Program-made: the position numbers and the translations under genes
Shown here: piece by piece, positions 4,915 through 57,175 of the stretch
How positions within the stretch are numbered: the stretch's first letter is position 1
Layout of the letters: every line of letters starts with the position of its first letter
The notes under the pieces: generated by a model
Told to the model about the DNA's origin: nothing
The model's input: the letters and a program-made list of their open reading frames with translations, nothing else
Database searches by the model: none
Assembly: GCA_020632095.1 (NCBI GenBank)
Contig: JACKGF010000001.1
Span: 669,366 to 733,365, forward strand
Length of the DNA stretch: 64,000 nucleotides
DNA from: Candidatus Nomurabacteria bacterium
GTDB lineage: Bacteria; Patescibacteriota; Minisyncoccia; Phycocordibacterales; UBA918
Direction: 5' to 3'

Positions 4915-4996
4915 CAATAAAGTAGCTAGAAACATTTGATTCAAATAATACCCAAATATTATACTTTGGTATTGGTATATGAATACACATACTATT

Positions 4997-5113
4997 TTGA
5001 ATGTTAAAACCGACAAGAAGTTGAAAGCTGAGGCCAAGAAAAGCAATCAAAAGCAAGTGCCGAGAGATGTTGGTGTTCAACCATTAGGCCGCACGGCCTT
5101 CACTTTGTATTGA
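4997..5113 (+). pseudogene. Remnant of DinJ/RelB-family antitoxin N-terminus (partial duplicate of 7921-8182), including operator-like palindrome upstream
   Basis: Approximately 100-nt near-identical copy of tatactttggtat..tatgaatacacatactattttgaatgttaaaaccgacaagaagtt.aaagc.gaggc.aa.aa; translates LNVKTDKKLKAEAKK.. then diverges; stop after 38 codons. Confidence 0.4.
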
Positions 5114-5169: not shown

Positions 5170-5754
5170 GTGAACATGAATCGTACTATTATAACCATCA
5201 CTGGTGCATCTGGTGTTGGCAAATCAACTCTTGAAGAAAGCTTAATCGAACACTTTGGTGGTGGCAGAATCGTCTCACACACATCACGAGACCCACGCCC
5301 AGGAGAGATTAAAACAAACTATGTTTTTTGCCAAAAATGGAAGTTGCGTTTTTGGATGTGCATTAACATCTTCTGTAGGACGGATTATTTATGGGTTATA
5401 AATGCCCATGGGAATCTGTATGCAGCACACACATCTCAATTCTATACTGCACTCAACGAGACTGGTTCGATTGCGTTTGGCTGCATATCGGACGGGTGTC
5501 ATCAGATAGTGGCCGATAGGTTTGAACCTGAGGGTATTGTCTGCAAAGCTATCCATCTGCTGCACCCAGGTGATTCTGAATTACGCCGTCGACTTGAAGG
5601 GCGCAAAGAAGATCCAGTCACCATTGAGAGACGCATCGAAAACTCCACAAAGTTAGAGAAAAAATCTCTAAAAAACCCTAATCTTTACCTGATTGAACCA
5701 GGTTCACCAGAGCAGGTTTTCAATCAAGTTATAGATATAATACACACCACCTAA
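5170..5754 (+). CDS. Divergent guanylate kinase-like P-loop protein (paralog)
   Basis: P-loop GASGVGKST; HTSRDPRPGE resembles the Gmk TTRxPRxGE motif; ..GNLYAAHTS resembles GNYYGTS; LRRRLEGRKED resembles LxxRLxxRGxD; central region divergent. Confidence 0.55.
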   Translation: MNMNRTIITITGASGVGKSTLEESLIEHFGGGRIVSHTSRDPRPGEIKTNYVFCQKWKLRFWMCINIFCRTDYLWVINAHGNLYAAHTSQFYTALNETGSIAFGCISDGCHQIVADRFEPEGIVCKAIHLLHPGDSELRRRLEGRKEDPVTIERRIENSTKLEKKSLKNPNLYLIEPGSPEQVFNQVIDIIHTT

Positions 5755-5836
5755 CCAAAAGCGCTCTGCAAATCCAGAGCGCTTTACTCATTTACAACGC
5801 CACAACTATTTATGAACGTGCTACTATCAAAGTATT

Positions 5837-6283
5837 ATGTCTACTAAATCATTACCCTCACTACCAAACTGCTTCTATCGGGTCAGCATAAAAGGACTCA
5901 TACTAAATGAACAAAGAAACAAGTTTTTAATTGGTAGAGACGAGGCAGGCTTTTGGGATCTACCTGGAGGCGGTCTAGAGTGGGGGGCTGCGCCGCAAGA
6001 AGATCTTACCAGAGAGATTGAAGAAGAAATGCAGTTGGCAGTTACAAAAGTTGCCGATCGGCCATGCTATTTTCTCACTGGACGACAAACAGTGAATCCA
6101 AATGTTCGCATCGCAAATGTTATCTATGAATGCCAAATTGCCAATTTTGATTTCACTCCTACGCCTGAATGTCTAGAAATCCAATTTGTAGACACAAAAG
6201 CTATTATTGATTTGGAAGTATCAGACACCGTGAGAGAGTTAATAAAAATATTTGATCCACAAAACCACACACAGCCGATCTAA
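5837..6283 (+). CDS. NUDIX hydrolase
   Basis: Nudix box GGGLEWGAAPQEDLTREIEEEMQL (GX5EX7REUXEEXGU). Confidence 0.85.
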   Translation: MSTKSLPSLPNCFYRVSIKGLILNEQRNKFLIGRDEAGFWDLPGGGLEWGAAPQEDLTREIEEEMQLAVTKVADRPCYFLTGRQTVNPNVRIANVIYECQIANFDFTPTPECLEIQFVDTKAIIDLEVSDTVRELIKIFDPQNHTQPI

Positions 6284-7625: not shown

Positions 7626-7769
7626 TGAGTTGGTGTAGAGTCACTTACGTTTACTCCATTTCAAATCCAGGCATGAACTGCCCCGATGCAAGGATGCGGA
7701 GTAAAGTTGGAATATACAACACTGCATCTCACTTTCCTTGAAACACAGCTCAAACCCCTCTTACTGACG

Positions 7770-7832
7770 CTGTTCAGGTTGTCGCTCTTACGAGCTGGCA
7801 ACCTCTTGCAAAAATGCCCCGCACTTTCTCAC
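7770..7832 (-). repeat. Copy A of a structured-RNA-like motif family (GTGAGAAAGT.YGGG..A.TTT.GCAAG + GNRA hairpin)
   Basis: Reverse complement reads GTGAGAAAGTGCGGGGCATTTTTGCAAGAGGTTGCCAGCTCGTAAGAGCGACAACCTGAACAG; homologous to 35684-35748 and 56847-56909 with compensatory stem changes. Confidence 0.5.
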
Positions 7833-7920
7833 TCTACGACGTCGCCCCTAAAGAAAGTAACTCCGCTTGACGCAAATAATACCAAAGTATATACTTTGGT
7901 ATATGAATACACATACTATT

Positions 7921-8182
7921 TTGAATGTTAAAACCGACAAGAAGTTAAAAGCCGAGGCTAAAAAGTTTCAGAAGAATTGGGTGTGCCTTTGAGCACTGTT
8001 ATTAATCTTTTCTAAAGCAATTTGTGCGCGATAAAGAGATAACTCTTTCCGCCAATCAGTACCGCCCTACCCCATACCTTGAAAGTATCCTTGAACAAGC
8101 TCAGTTAGAGTACGAAGCTGGTGATTTTGTAGGACCATTTAAAACTGGGGATGATTTTACTGCTCACTTGAAGTCTTTGTAG
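7921..8182 (+). pseudogene. DinJ/RelB-family antitoxin, disrupted by two frameshifts
   Basis: Three frames concatenate to MNVKTDKKLKAEAKK / VSEELGVPLSTVINLF / LKQFVRDKEITLSANQYRPTPYLESILEQAQLEYEAGDFVGPFKTGDDFTAHLKSL, a full-length DinJ-like antitoxin; perfect palindrome ATACCAAAGTATATACTTTGGTAT upstream is a candidate operator. Confidence 0.65.
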
Positions 8183-29256: not shown

Positions 29257-29328
29257 CAGTTTGCTTGTTTCGTGGACACAAAACACCGGCAAAGGCCGGT
29301 GTCTGTTTTGTGTCCACGACTGGAGTTG
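29257..29328. repeat. 72-nt direct repeat (copy 1) comprising a tRNA-Leu 3'-end fragment plus a long bulged hairpin
   Basis: Identical to 29448-29519; contains gtccacgactggagttg (reverse complement of the tRNA-Leu T-loop and acceptor 3' strand) and hairpin GTGGACACAAAACACCGGC-AAAG-GCCGGTGTCTGTTTTGTGTCCAC. Confidence 0.85.
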
Positions 29329-29447
29329 GTCACAAGTTACTAAGTATAATTGTTCACTTCGTTCCAATTCTACTAAGTACTTTCGACCCCGCCTCGACTG
29401 CAGCATAGCTGCATGTCTGCGGCCTTCAACTCCAGACACAAGCAAAG

Positions 29448-29519
29448 CAGTTTGCTTGTTTCGTGGACACAAAACACCGGCAAAGGCCGGTGTCTGTTTT
29501 GTGTCCACGACTGGAGTTG
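29448..29519. repeat. 72-nt direct repeat (copy 2), overlapping the genuine 3' end of tRNA-Leu
   Basis: Exact duplicate of 29257-29328. Confidence 0.85.
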
Positions 29520-29585
29520 AACCAGCATGAGGAAACCCTCACTACCCCCTCAAGGTAGCGCGTCTACCAATTTCGCCACGTGGAC
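29502..29585 (-). tRNA. tRNA-Leu (anticodon GAG), type II with long variable arm; CCA not encoded
   Basis: Hand fold of the reverse complement: acceptor GTCCACG/CGTGGAC, D-arm GCG-AAATTGGTAGA-CGC, anticodon stem CTACC/GGTAG with loop TTGAGGG, variable stem GAGG-GTTT-CCTC, T-arm GCTGG-TTCAACT-CCAGT, discriminator A. Confidence 0.85.
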
Positions 29586-35311: not shown

Positions 35312-35384
35312 GCGCGATTAGCTCAGTTGGTAGAGCAGCTCGTTTACACCGAGAAGGTCAGGAGTTCAAGTCTCTTATCGCGCA
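35312..35384 (+). tRNA. tRNA-Val (anticodon TAC)
   Basis: Acceptor GCGCGAT/ATCGCGC, D-arm GCTC-AGTTGGTA-GAGC, anticodon loop TTTACAC, T-arm AGGAG-TTCAAGT-CTCTT, discriminator A. Confidence 0.9.
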
Positions 35385-35391
35385 CACAGGT

Positions 35392-35444
35392 AAAACAAAG
35401 ACGCAATTCTTTTTTAGAATTGCGTCTTTGTTTTAGAAACTGAA
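35392..35444 (+). terminator. Strong hairpin directly downstream of tRNA-Val (candidate intrinsic terminator)
   Basis: AAAACAAAGACGCAATTCT-TTTT-AGAATTGCGTCTTTGTTTT, perfect 19-bp stem flanked by A/T runs. Confidence 0.6.
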
Positions 35445-35502
35445 CTGCTTCAGTTTCGTGCCTGTGTGCGAGGCGGAGACATATTTTCCTCCCCTTTCCT
35501 AG

Positions 35503-35577
35503 GGAGGGAAATAGTCGAGCCGGGGTAGCGAACACTTAGTAGAATTGGAACGTAGTGAACAATTATACTTAGTGATT
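35503..35577 (+). repeat. Approximately 72-nt core element shared (about 85% identity, inverted) with 29329-29400 next to tRNA-Leu
   Basis: gtcgagccggggtagcgaacacttagtagaattggaacgtagtgaacaattatacttagtgattcgtgacc aligns with the reverse complement of gtcacaagttactaagtataattgttcacttcgttccaattctactaagtactttcgaccccgcctcgac. Confidence 0.8.
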
Positions 35578-35683
35578 CGTGACCACTAAAATCCCCAACC
35601 CACATGCAAACTGCTTTGCTTCCGGAGAGACTTGAAAAGAGCGAATTTATCGCACGGAGCGGAGCGAGTATGATTTGAGCGCC

Positions 35684-35748
35684 GGGTGAGAAAGTCTGGG
35701 AGACTTTTGCAAGAGGTTGCCCGCTCGCAAGAGCGACAACCTGAACAG
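35684..35748 (+). repeat. Copy B of the structured-RNA-like motif family
   Basis: GGGTGAGAAAGTCTGGGAGACTTTTGCAAGAGGTTGCCCGCTCGCAAGAGCGACAACCTGAACAG; inner stem AAAGTC/GACTTT; hairpin GGTTG-CCGCTC-GCAA-GAGCG-CAACC. Confidence 0.55.
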
Positions 35749-35820
35749 AATTCGTAGAATTCGAGTAGTACAATATTTTGGAGTTCGGAGAACGAACAAA
35801 ATATTGATACGAAGGTGACC

Positions 35821-35834
35821 AAGTCTCTTATCGC
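35821..35834 (+). repeat. Duplicated tRNA-Val 3'-end fragment (aagtctcttatcgc), about 440 bp downstream of the tRNA
   Basis: gaaggtgaccAAGTCTCTTATCGCagacag matches tRNA-Val 35357-35383 (gaaggtcaggagttcAAGTCTCTTATCGCgcaca). Confidence 0.6.
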
Positions 35835-35906
35835 AGACAGACACTTTACAATACAATATATTCGTTATACTGTTCGACTAGCTGAAAGTTCACTTGGAGA
35901 TTTACC

Positions 35907-52109: not shown

Positions 52110-53130
52110 CTTTCTCAGATCCGGCTCCCTCCAGCTACCCCTCAAGTAGGACAGATTGCTCATAATAATACTCACTCGAAATCCTAAAATCAATACACTC
52201 TTTCGGTCGGTCATTCAAGAAGGCATGAATCTCATTCAATTCTTCTTGAGTAACAGACGCAATGTCTCTCCGCTTTGGAACAAAGCATCTAATCCAACGA
52301 TTAGTATTCTCTACCAGTCCCTTCTCCCAAGAATGATAAGGGTGGCAGAAATAGATTGGAGCCTGTATGATTTGTTCTAGTTCCGTCCAGTGACGGAATG
52401 CAATGTCGTTGTCGGTGGTGATACTCTTGACTATAATATTGCTAAACATTTTAGAGAACGCTGCACTGATTGTGTGGCGTTTTCTATTGGGTAACTGACG
52501 TACCAAGCTGTATTTAGTTAAACGGTCAGTAGCCACTAGAAGTACGTATGGACTGTACTTAGAGACAATGAAGTCTAGTTCATAGTGACCTAGCTCATGG
52601 CTACCAAGAGGACGAATATCTATATATTTACGGCCATCATCAGCTGGTTTATGTGTGGTCCGTTTCGGACCACTTTTCTTTTTGTTCCAACGCCAGAATA
52701 GTCGATATTCCAGACCACGACTTTCTATGAACTTGTATATAGCTTTGGCGGAACAGGTAACACCGAGCTCTCGTTTGAGATGTCCACTGATTTGTTTAGG
52801 GGTCCACTTCTTCTCCAATTTGTCTTCTACGAAACGAATCAGGAAACTATCTAGAGCCACCTTGAGACACTGACGTTTAGCCCGCCAACGACGTTGACTT
52901 ACTTTTAGTTGGGCTTGCTTGGCGTCATAGACTCCATTAACCCTATTCTTCTTTAGTTCCTGACTGATGGTGTTGGGACTACGTTTGAGGAAGATGGCTA
53001 TTTCTCTGATCAAACTCCCTGCGTTCAATAACTTTTCAATTACGAAACGCTCCTCAAATTGTATGTGTCTGTATGTTTTCATAGACAGCTAATTTACTTT
53101 ATAGCTGTCCTACTTCAAAGGTGTCTGGGG
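52110..53130 (-). mobile_element. IS30-family insertion sequence (approximate boundaries)
   Basis: Transposase gene flanked by imperfect terminal inverted repeats containing GTAGGACAG (52126-52136) and CTGTCCTAC (about 53113-53123). Confidence 0.55.
52135..53082 (-). CDS. IS30-family DDE transposase
   Basis: N-terminal HTH; integrase core; C-terminal HPYHSWEKGLVENTNRWIRCFVPK parallels the IS30 ..[23 protein letters not shown] motif. Confidence 0.85.
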   Translation of the reverse strand: MKTYRHIQFEERFVIEKLLNAGSLIREIAIFLKRSPNTISQELKKNRVNGVYDAKQAQLKVSQRRWRAKRQCLKVALDSFLIRFVEDKLEKKWTPKQISGHLKRELGVTCSAKAIYKFIESRGLEYRLFWRWNKKKSGPKRTTHKPADDGRKYIDIRPLGSHELGHYELDFIVSKYSPYVLLVATDRLTKYSLVRQLPNRKRHTISAAFSKMFSNIIVKSITTDNDIAFRHWTELEQIIQAPIYFCHPYHSWEKGLVENTNRWIRCFVPKRRDIASVTQEELNEIHAFLNDRPKECIDFRISSEYYYEQSVLLEG

Positions 53131-55412: not shown

Positions 55413-55530
55413 ACTATCTGTTTCGACAGATGGACTTAACTCTACTGGGTCCGAGATAATTTCTCGGGCCCTTTCTTTTGACAAATTTTTGTTTTGTAGT
55501 TTACTACTGATAGAAACGGAGGGCACCATA

Positions 55531-56082
55531 ATGTCGAAATCAAATCTAGTTGTACTTTCTGGTCCTTCTGGCTCAGGAAAAAGTTCTGTCATCAAAGAAA
55601 TAGAAAAAGAACTCCCATGCTCTCTTGTTGTCAGCACGACCACCAGAGAACCGAGATCAGGTGAGATTAACGGTATTGACTATCATTTTCTTTCACGGAA
55701 GTCTTTTCAAGATCTTGCTGCCGCTGGTGAGTTCATTGAATACATGGAGTTCAACGGGAATTTCTATGGAATCCATAAACCTGATTTGCAAAAACATGTT
55801 GATGGAGACAAAACCGTAATCCTTGACTTGTCATGCAGCGGAGCAAGAAAAGTAAAAGGGATTCACAAAGAAGCAACGCTAGTGTTTCTTCTACCCCCTT
55901 CTTACAATATTGCTCGGCAGAGATTGCTCGAACGAGGGATGACGCATGACGAAATTGTTCTGCGCGAGCAAGACGACGATAGTCCTTTGTCGGAAGCACG
56001 ATTCTATGATTTGCTAGTTGTTAACCATACTGGCAAACTCAAAGAGACGGCATCAACAATACTTCGCCACCTAAACGTGTGA
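55531..56082 (+). CDS. gmk: Guanylate kinase
   Basis: LSGPSGSGKSS; STTTREPRSGEINGIDYHF; EFNGNFYGI; LPPSYNIARQRLLERG. Confidence 0.8.
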   Translation: MSKSNLVVLSGPSGSGKSSVIKEIEKELPCSLVVSTTTREPRSGEINGIDYHFLSRKSFQDLAAAGEFIEYMEFNGNFYGIHKPDLQKHVDGDKTVILDLSCSGARKVKGIHKEATLVFLLPPSYNIARQRLLERGMTHDEIVLREQDDDSPLSEARFYDLLVVNHTGKLKETASTILRHLNV

Positions 56083-56116
56083 CGGATGGAGGCGGTGCTT
56101 TGCACTGACTCCTTTT

Positions 56117-56638
56117 ATGTTAAAGTTTAATTTATTATCATCCTCATCAGAAATTATGAAAACAGTATCTTGTACAACAATCGACGGATCAACTAAAGAA
56201 GTACCCGTAAATGAACTAACTTTGCGTGCACAACTATATGGAATCATTATCAATGATAAGTCTGAAGTGCTACTAGTGCCCAATTGGGACGGCTACGACT
56301 TCCCCGGAGGAGGCATCGACTTAGGTGAAACATTTGAAGAAGCTTTTAGTAGAGAGATCGTGGAAGAAACAGGCCTAACTGCAACAATGGATGAAATCTT
56401 CTACACAGACGGAAGTTTCTTTTATCATCCAAATAAAGAAAAAGGATTTCAAACTATATTAATGTATGCAACAGCAAAAGAAGTATCTGGTGAAATTTCT
56501 ACAAAAAACCTCGACGTACACGAACAAGATTATGCTGGTGAAGCGAAATGGTTTTCTCTGGAAGAAGCAAAGACCCTTAAGTTTCACAACGACGTTGACT
56601 CAGTTGAGCTGATCCGACAAGCTATCGAAAAGAAATAG
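56117..56638 (+). CDS. NUDIX hydrolase
   Basis: Nudix box PGGGIDLGETFEEAFSREIVEETGL. Confidence 0.75.
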   Translation: MLKFNLLSSSSEIMKTVSCTTIDGSTKEVPVNELTLRAQLYGIIINDKSEVLLVPNWDGYDFPGGGIDLGETFEEAFSREIVEETGLTATMDEIFYTDGSFFYHPNKEKGFQTILMYATAKEVSGEISTKNLDVHEQDYAGEAKWFSLEEAKTLKFHNDVDSVELIRQAIEKK

Positions 56639-56708: not shown

Positions 56709-56846
56709 GAGCGGCGTGAGTCGCTCGGAAACGCTTACGGGGCTTACTGGGTATTTTTCCGGTACGTCTAGGGGGCACACAGGTAAAACAATGTGCCGGA
56801 CGGAGCATGTGAGGAGCGCGCCTCTTAGCGCAACAAACAGCGAGAC

Positions 56847-56909
56847 GGGTGAGAAAGTCTGGGAGACTTTCGCAAGGTCTTGCGAAGTGACCTTGAGTCA
56901 CTTCTCACC
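56847..56909 (+). repeat. Copy C of the structured-RNA-like motif family
   Basis: GGGTGAGAAAGTCTGGGAGACTTTCGCAAGGTCTTGCGAAGTGACCTTGAGTCACTTCTCACC; hairpin GGTC-TT-GCGA-AG-GACC; GGTGAGAA..TTCTCACC closing stem. Confidence 0.55.
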
Positions 56910-57175
56910 TCTGGCTTGCTTCGCTCGCTAGCCACCCAGAAACTTCCTTTTATCGTTGTGAAAGTTTGCTTTCAAGAAAGCTAAACTTTTAGTCAACTCA
57001 ACATAAACAAAATATAGTCGTTTGTACCTTACTTCTTATTTTGCTAATCATTTTTTTGCACTCCTCCCCAAACCCCTCTTCGCTTGAATGAATTAGGCAA
57101 GGAAGTTTTTGGGTTGCTTTCGCTATGATGCAACAGTTATAGTTTCAGTGTCATAGTTATATGATTTGACACATA

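Follow-up and report, generated by a model that had tools for sequence, protein, structure and literature searches.

Folded non-coding modules, probably mobile, in genomes of Patescibacteria: three copies in one Nomurabacteria contig and a family across the phylum

Background

Several systems of small, structured DNA elements have been described in bacteria. Repetitive extragenic palindromic (REP) sequences, bacterial interspersed mosaic elements (BIMEs) and the palindrome-associated transposable elements (PATEs) derived from IS200/IS605 are moved by Y1 (HUH) transposases or REP-associated tyrosine transposases (RAYTs), integron attC sites and the attP site of CTX phage (Xer-dependent) are recognised by structure rather than sequence, genomic islands at tRNA genes arise by crossover in the T-loop or anticodon loop, and miniature inverted-repeat transposable elements (MITEs) include the Rickettsia palindromic elements and the Correia elements. 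Here we describe an element of this broad kind, small structured interspersed mobile repeats, that is present in three copies (A, B and C) in a 64-kb stretch of a Candidatus Nomurabacteria genome (contig JACKGF010000001.1, positions 669,366 to 733,365; the whole stretch is referred to as the window). Patescibacteria, the ultra-small bacteria of the candidate phyla radiation, make up a large share of bacterial diversity and have tiny genomes with little space for non-coding DNA; three copies in one 64-kb window, conserved, unannotated and with very strong covariation support, therefore point either to a major mobile element not characterised so far or to an RNA whose role spans the phylum.

We report that the element is a tightly folded non-coding insertion module of about 80-110 bases (75-110 nt), usually with several copies per genome. 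In our judgement the evidence tips somewhat towards A, B and the rearranged C being members of a family of structured insertion modules across Patescibacteria that are non-autonomous, mobile and recognised as a folded single strand.

Results

Copies A, B and C in the window

The original prediction listed three equivalent copies of a structured motif, and direct reading found A, B and C where it had placed them. The 15-mer GTGAGAAAGTNNGGG occurs exactly three times in the 64 kb, and with up to two mismatches it gives 7 matches against 1.46 expected (0 of 100 shuffles reach 7). A covariance model trained on foreign homologues together with A and B only, C being excluded, was used to scan the window and returned B with every pair intact (77.2 bits, E=7e-20), A with two P4 pairs broken (70.2 bits, E=6e-18) and C (40.5 bits, E=1.5e-9); the best remaining match scored only 10.9 bits (E=0.35), leaving A, B and C as the sole matches. 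All three copies are thus real; the equivalence is not, as A and B are full members of one family and C is a rearranged half-member. The features are as follows.

Copy A, core, 7753..7832, minus strand, by direct reading and model score
Copy A, GUGAG, 7832-7828, minus strand, by reading
Copy A, P2 hairpin with GGG triloop, 7828-7810, minus strand, by reading
Copy A, CGCAAGA, between P2 and P3, minus strand, by reading
Copy A, P3 with GUAA tip, 7803-7777, minus strand, by reading
Copy A, UGAACAG, 7776-7770, minus strand, by reading
Copy A, degenerate P4, 7769-7757, minus strand, by reading and model alignment
Copy B, core, 35686..35765, plus strand, by direct reading and model score
Copy B, P2, 35690-35708, plus strand, by reading
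Copy B, P3 with GCAA tip, 35715-35741, plus strand, by reading
Copy B, UGAACAG, 35742-35748, plus strand, by reading
Copy B, P4 (GAAUUC-GUA-GAAUUC), 35748-35762, plus strand, by reading
Copy C, two P2-type modules head to head, 56847..56909, plus strand, by reading, fold and model
Copy C, closing stem, 56848-56855 with 56902-56909, plus strand, from the fold
Copy C, hairpins, 56856-56870, 56871-56884 and 56885-56903, plus strand, from the fold

A and B can be aligned over about 80 nt, with about 87% identity across the first 63 nt, and the cores are slightly longer than originally described, the third hairpin (P4) lying beyond the ...CAACCUGAACAG end. The overlapping open reading frames (ORFs) at 7686-7931, 35647-35856 and 56716-56931 are mechanical ORFs only, on inconsistent strands, in agreement with the non-coding status originally proposed. 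The inner stem reads AAAGUGC/GCAUUUU in A and AAAGUCU/AGACUUU in B and C, a compensatory difference. The three copies alone are insufficient to decide the structure; folded alone, A and B barely beat shuffled sequences (z=-1.4 and z=-1.2, respectively), and C gives z=-2.8.

Copy C matches A and B only over its first ~28 nt (the P2 module) and diverges past GCAAG. It folds as its own four-way junction, closed by GGUGAGAA/UUCUCACC (z=-2.8 on the plus and -4.1 on the minus strand), and on its minus strand a second P2 module, of another family subtype (GUGAGAAGUGAC..GUCACUUCGCAAGA), can be read. No other copy in the window or in the 118 loci listed (see below) has this architecture, and C would have arisen by recombination between two elements, whose 5' modules, of different subtypes, now form a dimer. 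Its neighbours are a NUDIX gene and a Fic gene that converge on it. Paralogous pairs of a guanylate-kinase-like gene followed by a NUDIX gene are present at 5170-6283, near A, and at 55489-56638, immediately upstream of C.

Conserved fold and covariation

The family form is 5'-GUGAG, the P2 hairpin, CGCAAGA, the long P3 hairpin, UG(A/U/G)ACAG and the P4 hairpin. The P2 consensus is AAAGUCU-GGG-AGACUUU, extended by the pairs U2-A26 and G3-C25, and that of P4 is nnnnCU-GUA-AGnnnn. The base of P3 alternates between GGUUG/CAACC, CCUUG/CAAGG and CUCAUUG/CAAUGAG, and its tip measures anything between 4 nt and over 100 nt and can contain a whole tRNA gene. The GNRA tetraloops that were part of the original description do cap P3 in A (GUAA) and B (GCAA), but are not kept family-wide.

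Covariation was assessed in an unguided MAFFT alignment of 88 distinct copies, in which standard pairs occupy 96.4% of cells; sliding the 3' partners by 1-3 columns lowers pairing to 32.6-50.4% (mostly 48-50%). Double-change cells number 299 compared to 102.5±6.8 in shuffles, with 0 of 500 shuffles reaching 299. Compensatory change is seen at 13 of the 22 pairs overall, including 6 of 7 in P3 and 5 of 5 in P4, and the change originally noticed in the inner stem recurs family-wide at the two apical P2 pairs (28 and 16 double changes among the 88 sequences). When the alignment was instead derived from the model (114 hits, including divergent ones), compensatory change was present at 22 of 22 pairs, in an alignment that leans towards the model. 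On the reported strand G·U pairs outnumber A·C mismatches by 60 to 18 (p=2e-6), so the strand originally read is the folding strand. P2, P3 and P4 are maintained by compensatory substitution, on one strand only. Since the covariation is genuine and many additional copies exist, the original prediction of conserved structure stands.

The invariance of P2 and its flanks is partly imposed by the search pattern given below; among divergent copies found with the model there are whole-stem replacements, e.g. GUGAC..GUCAC and GCGYG..CRCGC. A general closing helix (P1) was considered and rejected: a helix of 9-15 bp formed by the flanks is significant in only about 23% of the copies. At five loci (L005, L030, L094, L097 and L116) a hairpin repeat of ~35 nt, GTCACATAAAATTYCAGCAGAAWTTTATGTGTGAC, replaces P3 and P4 after the GUGAG-P2 module, and modules thus combine in mosaic fashion.

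A superficial likeness to the P4 region of RNase P RNA had been pointed out originally, and superficial it is. RNase P RNA is encoded by a single-copy gene and is about 350 nt long. We rejected both the RNase P RNA itself and a P4 fragment (with GGAAAGUCCGGGC as the 5' strand of a long-range P4), as GAGAAAGUC finds its partner locally, in the covarying P2 hairpin, the element has many copies and RNase P models give no hit.

Distribution and novelty

For the pattern scan we used one genome per species and a 26-nt pattern (GAGAAAGTNNGGGNNNNTTTNGCAAG, 19 fixed bases) over ~1.2e12 positions. At least 118 loci match, almost all in metagenome-assembled genomes (MAGs) of Patescibacteria; about 6 of the matches listed lack the rest of the architecture and come from unrelated taxa, compared to an estimate of about 4 chance matches. 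The host MAGs are assigned to Saccharibacteria, Kaiserbacteria, Paceibacteria, Nomurabacteria, Taylorbacteria, Doudnabacteria, Roizmanbacteria and Minisyncoccia, and conservation spans Saccharibacteria to Paceibacteria and Microgenomates. Genuine copies are also present in two bins labelled Azotimanducaceae and Acidimicrobiales. These bins probably hold mis-binned contigs, because proteins of the window are 65-80% identical to those of a contig from one of them and 76% identical to those of a Paceibacterota contig. The same identities suggest a Paceibacteria-like organism as the source of the window. The covariance model gave 142 matches in the 703 kb of listed loci, often clustered or tandem. 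In one locus (L067, 520-2250) six copies lie within 1.6 kb beside the 23S-5S rRNA genes and, from reading the sequence, one of these appears to be inside a second, degenerate 5S copy (~1140-1400).

At gathering thresholds Rfam 15 identifies only four tRNAs in the whole window; near A, B and C a cut-off of E<=10 brings up no relevant family, and on 18 homologous loci only rRNA, tRNA and group I introns are found. The ribozyme models for hammerhead, twister, twister-sister, hatchet, pistol, hepatitis delta virus (HDV)-like and hairpin classes give no match at E<=10 around A, B and C. Phage origin was rejected because 50,697 phage records and IMG/VR contain zero matches to the element. A full-text literature search, which included the sequence itself, found no description; a report of group I introns in the genes for tRNA-Asn and tRNA-Asp of Patescibacteria (PMC13011429) does not mention it. 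The element is unannotated, with no Rfam family and no paper found, and it lacks the defining features of MITEs, attC sites, introns, riboswitches and guide RNAs.

Filled and empty sites in repeat G

Copy A is part of a larger composite unit.

Composite unit hosting copy A, 7696..7866, minus strand, a copy of repeat G (GGGGCGACGUCGUAGA + core + ..UUUGAGCUGUGUUUCAAGG..AUUCCAACUUU), from alignment
Outer helix of this unit, GCGGAGU (7866-7860) with ACUCCGC (7702-7696), minus strand, from the fold

Repeat G (about 100 nt; GGGCGACGUCGUAGAG followed by GACGUUCGAACUGUGUUUGAGG...) is multi-copy in several MAGs. Alignment of ten copies, from four MAGs and the window, gave 4 empty and 6 filled sites, with the core as a clean indel of 75-95 nt at one position of repeat G. 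Two empty copies and one filled copy lie within 8 kb in L031, one of each is found in L071, and L041 carries two filled copies with differing P2 and P3 subtypes at the same site, which suggests independent insertions into that site. The module is one discrete DNA segment that some sites carry and others, homologous in all else, lack. The repeat G sites are:

L031, 401-510, 1381-1490 and 5190-5379, repeat G (GGGCGACGTCGTAGAGGACGTTCGAAC...)
L071, 3143-3332 and 4193-4302, repeat G
L014, 3419-3528, repeat G
L041, 992-1191 and 1802-1991, repeat G
L006, 621-820, repeat G

Repeat G, likewise an uncharacterised element, is present in several copies in MAGs of Saccharibacteria and Kaiserbacteria, and in L014 and L071 it stands back to back with tRNA-His-derived units. 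A tmRNA (transfer-messenger RNA) or tRNA identity was rejected, as ARAGORN finds neither in repeat G of L014, L071, L031, L006 and L041; Rfam has no family for it in L031, L071, L041 and L006.

In the window the A unit is flanked by ParE-like and YafQ-like genes and lies 63 nt from a 57-bp direct repeat that copies the 5' end of an antitoxin gene beside tRNA-His. The two copies of this repeat (4972-5028 and 7896-7952, 98% identical) contain the start of the DinJ-like antitoxin gene and its operator region, duplicated right after tRNA-His. They bracket a block of ~2.9 kb with guanylate-kinase-like, NUDIX and ParD/ParE-like genes and copy A, together with a gene of the 3-demethylubiquinone-9 3-methyltransferase family (PF06983).

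The element has no terminal inverted repeats, its consensus 5' end (GUGAGAAAGU) and 3' end (CUUCUGUAAGAAG) not being complementary. Nor is there a target-site duplication: the last 4 nt of the 5' flank and the 3' strand of P4 share 1.38 matches compared to 1.32 by chance, and only the GUAGAG-targeting lineage shows a quasi-repeat; in repeat G the sequences GUAGAG and GUAAGAG flank the core. Internal core segments match the flanks no better than chance.

Orphan gene ends and precise junctions

In at least 17 strict copies the 13-39 nt directly 5' of GUGAG recur 70-290 nt downstream (in one case at ~790 nt) with 92-100% identity, and in nearly all of them the downstream recurrence runs on as the intact gene; in L048 the repeat reaches ~70 nt when read directly. 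The junction is X/G in 14 of 17 copies, followed by UGAG or by the gene's own sequence. The 5' end, (G)UGAG, is joined precisely after a target G. Past P4 a short further piece of the target is often present, with 0-5 nt lost. The targets are:

RNase HII (rnhB), after the DEVG codons, in L022, L032 and L064
MsrA, before GCFWG, in L066
ComM, antisense, at T/IADL, in L048, L074 and L091, and diverged in L072 and L013
tRNA D-arm, in L002, L042 and L116
tRNA-Ser D-loop, in L080, L095 and L099
tRNA-Met acceptor stem, in L078 and L079
tRNA-Ile position 38/39, antisense, in L012 and L029
5S rRNA, in L067

The orphan ComM tail of L072 has diverged yet is still an open reading frame, and in L048 five terminal codons differ only synonymously, so both copies once served as gene ends. 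We found no copy that interrupts an otherwise continuous ORF, and when the element is removed only 6 marginal ORFs, of 60-107 codons, are restored, none of them credible. These arrangements point to insertion into a conserved site, which would survive only where a duplication preserves one intact copy. In L002 (7293-7578) and L042 (156-443, minus strand) the tRNA genes carry group I introns in the anticodon loop, of the type reported in PMC13011429; an orphan 5' fragment of the same tRNA precedes each, bearing the element at position ~26.

Copies linked to tRNA genes

Among 157 copies, 53 lie within 300 nt of a tRNA gene and 37 within 100 nt; the 53 compare to ~6.5% expected (80 tRNAs in 834 kb), a roughly five-fold enrichment, and in 31 of the 53 the tRNA is upstream on the same strand. 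For the 34 copies downstream of a tRNA, a direct orphan of the tRNA 3' end follows in 15 and a complementary segment precedes in 12, compared to 0 of either in controls. A subclass without P2 begins with the intact tRNA, followed in most cases read by a terminator-like hairpin; next come a segment that complements the tRNA's T-stem and acceptor 3' strand, the core (GA-P3-UGUACUG-P4) and an orphan tRNA 3' end that starts in the T-loop and provides the 3' strands of P4 and of the closing helix. Tandem tRNA-linked units occur (L101). A small circle with a stem as its attachment site would leave this layout on integrating at the T-loop; the layout also resembles the acceptor/T-arm 'minihelix' of tRNA.

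Copy B is of this tRNA-linked kind.

Intact tRNA-Val, 35312-35385
Non-coding insert with B, ~440 nt, 35386..35834, plus strand
Parts of the insert: a palindromic hairpin; a complementary copy of the tRNA 3' end, 35451-35460; module K, 35533-35585; the B unit
Extended B unit, 35625..35829, plus strand
Outer helix of the B unit, GAGAGACUUG (35625-35634, complementary to the tRNA-Val T-arm) with CAAGUCUCUU (35820-35829, orphan tRNA-Val 3' end)
15-nt orphan of the tRNA-Val 3' end, 35820-34, a direct repeat of 35367-81

The outer helix closes a 205-nt multi-helix structure, and the fold of 35622-35842 (-68.8 kcal/mol, z=-4.65) is matched in stability by 0 of 200 shuffles. Copies of tRNA-Val sequence around B score 15 (direct) and 10 (inverted) compared to 5 in the control. 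The inserts of 135-440 nt contain no ORFs, and the genes after B are not recombinases. At the T-loop end of tRNA-Val small non-coding units appear to have been integrated as a stack, B being one of them.

The tRNA-Leu(GAG) insert of the window (29262-29585, minus strand) has the same layout with a different core. The order is a palindromic terminator that includes the tRNA's own 3' end, a T-arm complement (29425-29435), a non-coding block of ~95 nt, the orphan tRNA 3' end (29311-29327) and a second copy of the terminator. Module K (ACTTAGTAGAATTGGAACGnAGTGAACAATTATACTTAGT..GTGACC, ~52 nt) is present after both tRNA-Leu (29328-29379, minus) and tRNA-Val (35533-35585, plus). GTGACC stands directly before the orphan tRNA fragment, at the end of the unit, both in the tRNA-Leu unit with module K and in the tRNA-Val unit with B, which suggests a common attachment junction in the T-loop.

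Neighbouring genes and orientation

All ORFs within ±2.5 kb of ~120 copies, in 8-kb genome pieces, were clustered. No recurrent protein family lies beside the element in these pieces, and only orthologous housekeeping genes clustered. The proximity to toxin genes seen originally in the window is hence not general, and was dropped because the general neighbours are tRNA genes and orphan fragments of them. A large serine recombinase was considered as partner, with too few cases for a conclusion: L043, L080 (fragments), L031 (at the edge) and L109. In the contig of L109 there are 100% identical inverted repeats (62-388/5592-5918, 327 nt; 5911-6049/7467-7605, 139 nt) that distort the serine-recombinase ORF and are probably a fold-back assembly artefact of that MAG. 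An IS30-like transposase ORF (HTH_38 and rve integrase core) at 52135-53082 of the window, minus strand, shows no tie to the element.

The nearest upstream ORF is co-oriented with the element in 54 cases and opposed in 58, and the corresponding numbers downstream are 50 and 44, i.e. there is no orientation bias. The copies lie on the G-rich strand in a ratio of 67:38. In independent metagenome assemblies of the same strain, from other samples, contigs start at window position 35727, inside B (L120 and L121), or end near 56751-56757, about 90 nt before C (L123 and L126), which is consistent with fragmentation of short-read assemblies by these repeats.

Discussion

The filled and empty copies of repeat G and the duplicated target fragments are best accommodated by the recombination structure that was one of the roles first suggested; a ribozyme, also suggested, finds no evidence. 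We therefore lean, with modest confidence, towards a mobile module that is active now or was so recently, is non-autonomous and would depend, for its movement in trans, on an enzyme with its gene at another place in the genome. This enzyme would recognise a folded single strand, possibly single-stranded DNA (ssDNA); an RNA copy seems less likely. The G-rich-strand excess fits, weakly, a replication-linked ssDNA step. Gene-destroying insertions would be purged, with survivors in intergenic DNA, in other repeats (copy A would have been inserted into a copy of repeat G) and in duplicated gene ends.

Several observations weigh against mobility as the whole account. The comparison of filled and empty sites is between paralogous repeat copies, and we found no presence/absence polymorphism between strains of one species; the contigs that encode the neighbouring proteins of B and C come from this strain or from one 98.7% identical to it, and each either contains the elements or is broken within them. 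In the 5' flanks there is no conserved target motif beyond the G. No transposase, recombinase or reverse transcriptase is consistently linked within the pieces studied, large serine recombinase genes being near only 3-4 copies, and the strand bias is weak beside that of IS200/IS605 elements. Moreover, the unpaired GUGAG, CGCAAGA and UGWACAG and the GGG and GUA loops are kept across distant classes. Such conservation, even if partly imposed by the search pattern, exceeds that of usual selfish repeats and could reflect a cellular RNA function.

That the copies are genes or domains of a cellular small RNA, with a protein-binding or catalytic core and often a tRNA-like shell matured by tRNA-processing enzymes, strikes us as rather unlikely. 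Duplication and recombination near tRNA genes would then give a mere appearance of mobility. The junction and loop nucleotides kept across the phylum, the covariation of all helices and a single strand that folds well (G·U:A·C = 60:18) speak for it, as do the proximity to tRNA genes, mostly downstream on the same strand (31/53), the flank helices of 9-15 bp in ~23% of the copies, the acceptor/T-stem mimics of tRNA-linked copies and orthologous loci in nine species that retain their own covarying outer helices. However, none of A, B and C has a sigma-70-like promoter upstream on the motif strand, the upstream flanks have no conserved sequence, and in most tRNA-linked copies inspected a terminator-like hairpin and U tract separate the tRNA from the element. 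Filled and empty sites, different core subtypes at one site, tandem and clustered copies, and a closing helix missing from most copies fit a small RNA gene poorly as well. The functional-RNA and mobile-element readings may both be true together.

An intron or self-cleaving ribozyme, spliced from tRNA, rRNA or mRNA or cutting transcripts at G/UGAG, would explain the precise 5' boundary without target duplication, the location inside copies of tRNA, 5S rRNA and coding sequence and the compact, multi-helical fold, in a phylum rich in group I introns (PMC13011429). We regard it as very improbable: the element is never in the functional gene copy, only in the orphan duplicate beside an intact gene, its removal restores no ORF, it lies in either orientation to the host gene (e.g. 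antisense in tRNA-Ile and comM), and the Rfam intron and ribozyme models give no hit near A, B or C at E<=10. Self-splicing introns are far larger; none of them, to our knowledge, comes near the 75-110 nt of the element. Least of all do we expect that the element regulates the adjacent gene in cis (as a riboswitch, leader, terminator or determinant of mRNA stability), although an intergenic structured junction with a variable closing helix superficially resembles a riboswitch aptamer; this role is essentially refuted by the orientation (54:58 upstream, 50:44 downstream) and by neighbour genes that are mutually unrelated. Several tens of copies per Mb are implied by the data, and P4 lacks a trailing U tract.

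Going beyond the mobile module that we prefer, we raise tentatively, as a possibility that we would not bet on, a previously unrecognised mobile class specific to Patescibacteria and pervasive among them, i.e. a protein-less folded single-strand module of 75-110 nt that enters, or settles next to, tRNA-like helices and conserved gene ends or, equivalently, a domesticated RNA with an essential phylum-wide partner. If true, such a class might depend on the host for its enzyme (for example one of tRNA processing, of the Xer type or acting on ssDNA in competence) and would create partial duplications of gene ends and tRNA ends in these reduced genomes. The element accounts for orphan fragments (tRNA, 5S, rnhB, msrA, comM) next to intact genes in MAGs, for stacked non-coding inserts at tRNA 3' ends and for assembly breaks. 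It is a testable handle on genome rearrangement and could mark wrongly binned contigs.

Comparison with known systems

Riboswitches and leaders need a fixed orientation upstream of a recurrent gene class, which the element does not have. Guide RNAs such as the omega RNA of IscB/TnpB and the bridge RNA of IS110 are encoded beside a nuclease or recombinase and have a variable segment that matches the target, whereas the element has no linked protein and its variable core parts match the flanks at chance level; a guide-RNA reading of the identity between the 5' flank and the neighbouring gene was rejected, since this identity occurs in sense or antisense and DNA duplication explains it better. 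Group I and II introns interrupt a functional gene and their exons are joined, whereas the element is found only in orphan copies and matches no intron model. MITEs share with it the small size, the structure, the dispersal into other genes and repeats, and filled and empty sites (here in repeat G), but the element has neither terminal inverted repeats nor a fixed target duplication and is never tolerated inside a functional gene copy.

Islands at tRNA genes have the same order of intact tRNA, insert and orphan 3' end from the T-loop, which we find as a direct repeat at tRNA-Val (copy B), at the tRNA-Leu of the window and at no fewer than 10 foreign loci, likewise with tandem units. The inserts with the element are, however, only 135-440 nt and encode no integrase or other protein, and the core is also present at many non-tRNA sites. 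With attC and the CTX-phage attP the element shares structure over sequence, use of one strand and small non-coding units that can be stacked in arrays at one site; its tRNA layout (intact target, rest of unit, complement, core, orphan) corresponds to integration of a circle via a stem site. In contrast to integron attC, the RYYYAAC...GTTRRRY boxes are absent, the sequence of the P3 base is not fixed, no integrase or attI adjoins and no integrase recurs nearby. Moreover, attC and attP target attI or dif, whereas the element targets tRNA or gene ends, and its core takes either orientation within the closing helix.

The REP/BIME and PATE elements are likewise short, non-coding, multi-copy and mostly intergenic, have no terminal inverted repeats or target duplication, use one active strand, carry covarying hairpins near both ends (here P2 at the 5' and P4 at the 3' end) and are built of mosaic modules mobilised in trans, as would be the case for the element. 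They differ in having a conserved 4-5-nt target that abuts the left end, where the element has only a G following the junction, in being simple palindromes rather than three helices around conserved junction strands, and in being species-specific rather than conserved across a whole phylum; further, no Y1 transposase gene is seen near the copies within the 8-kb pieces, and the replication-strand bias is only weak (67:38). By analogy, the nearest working models would thus be elements of the IS200/IS605-REP type and folded sites of the integron attC or CTX-phage attP type.

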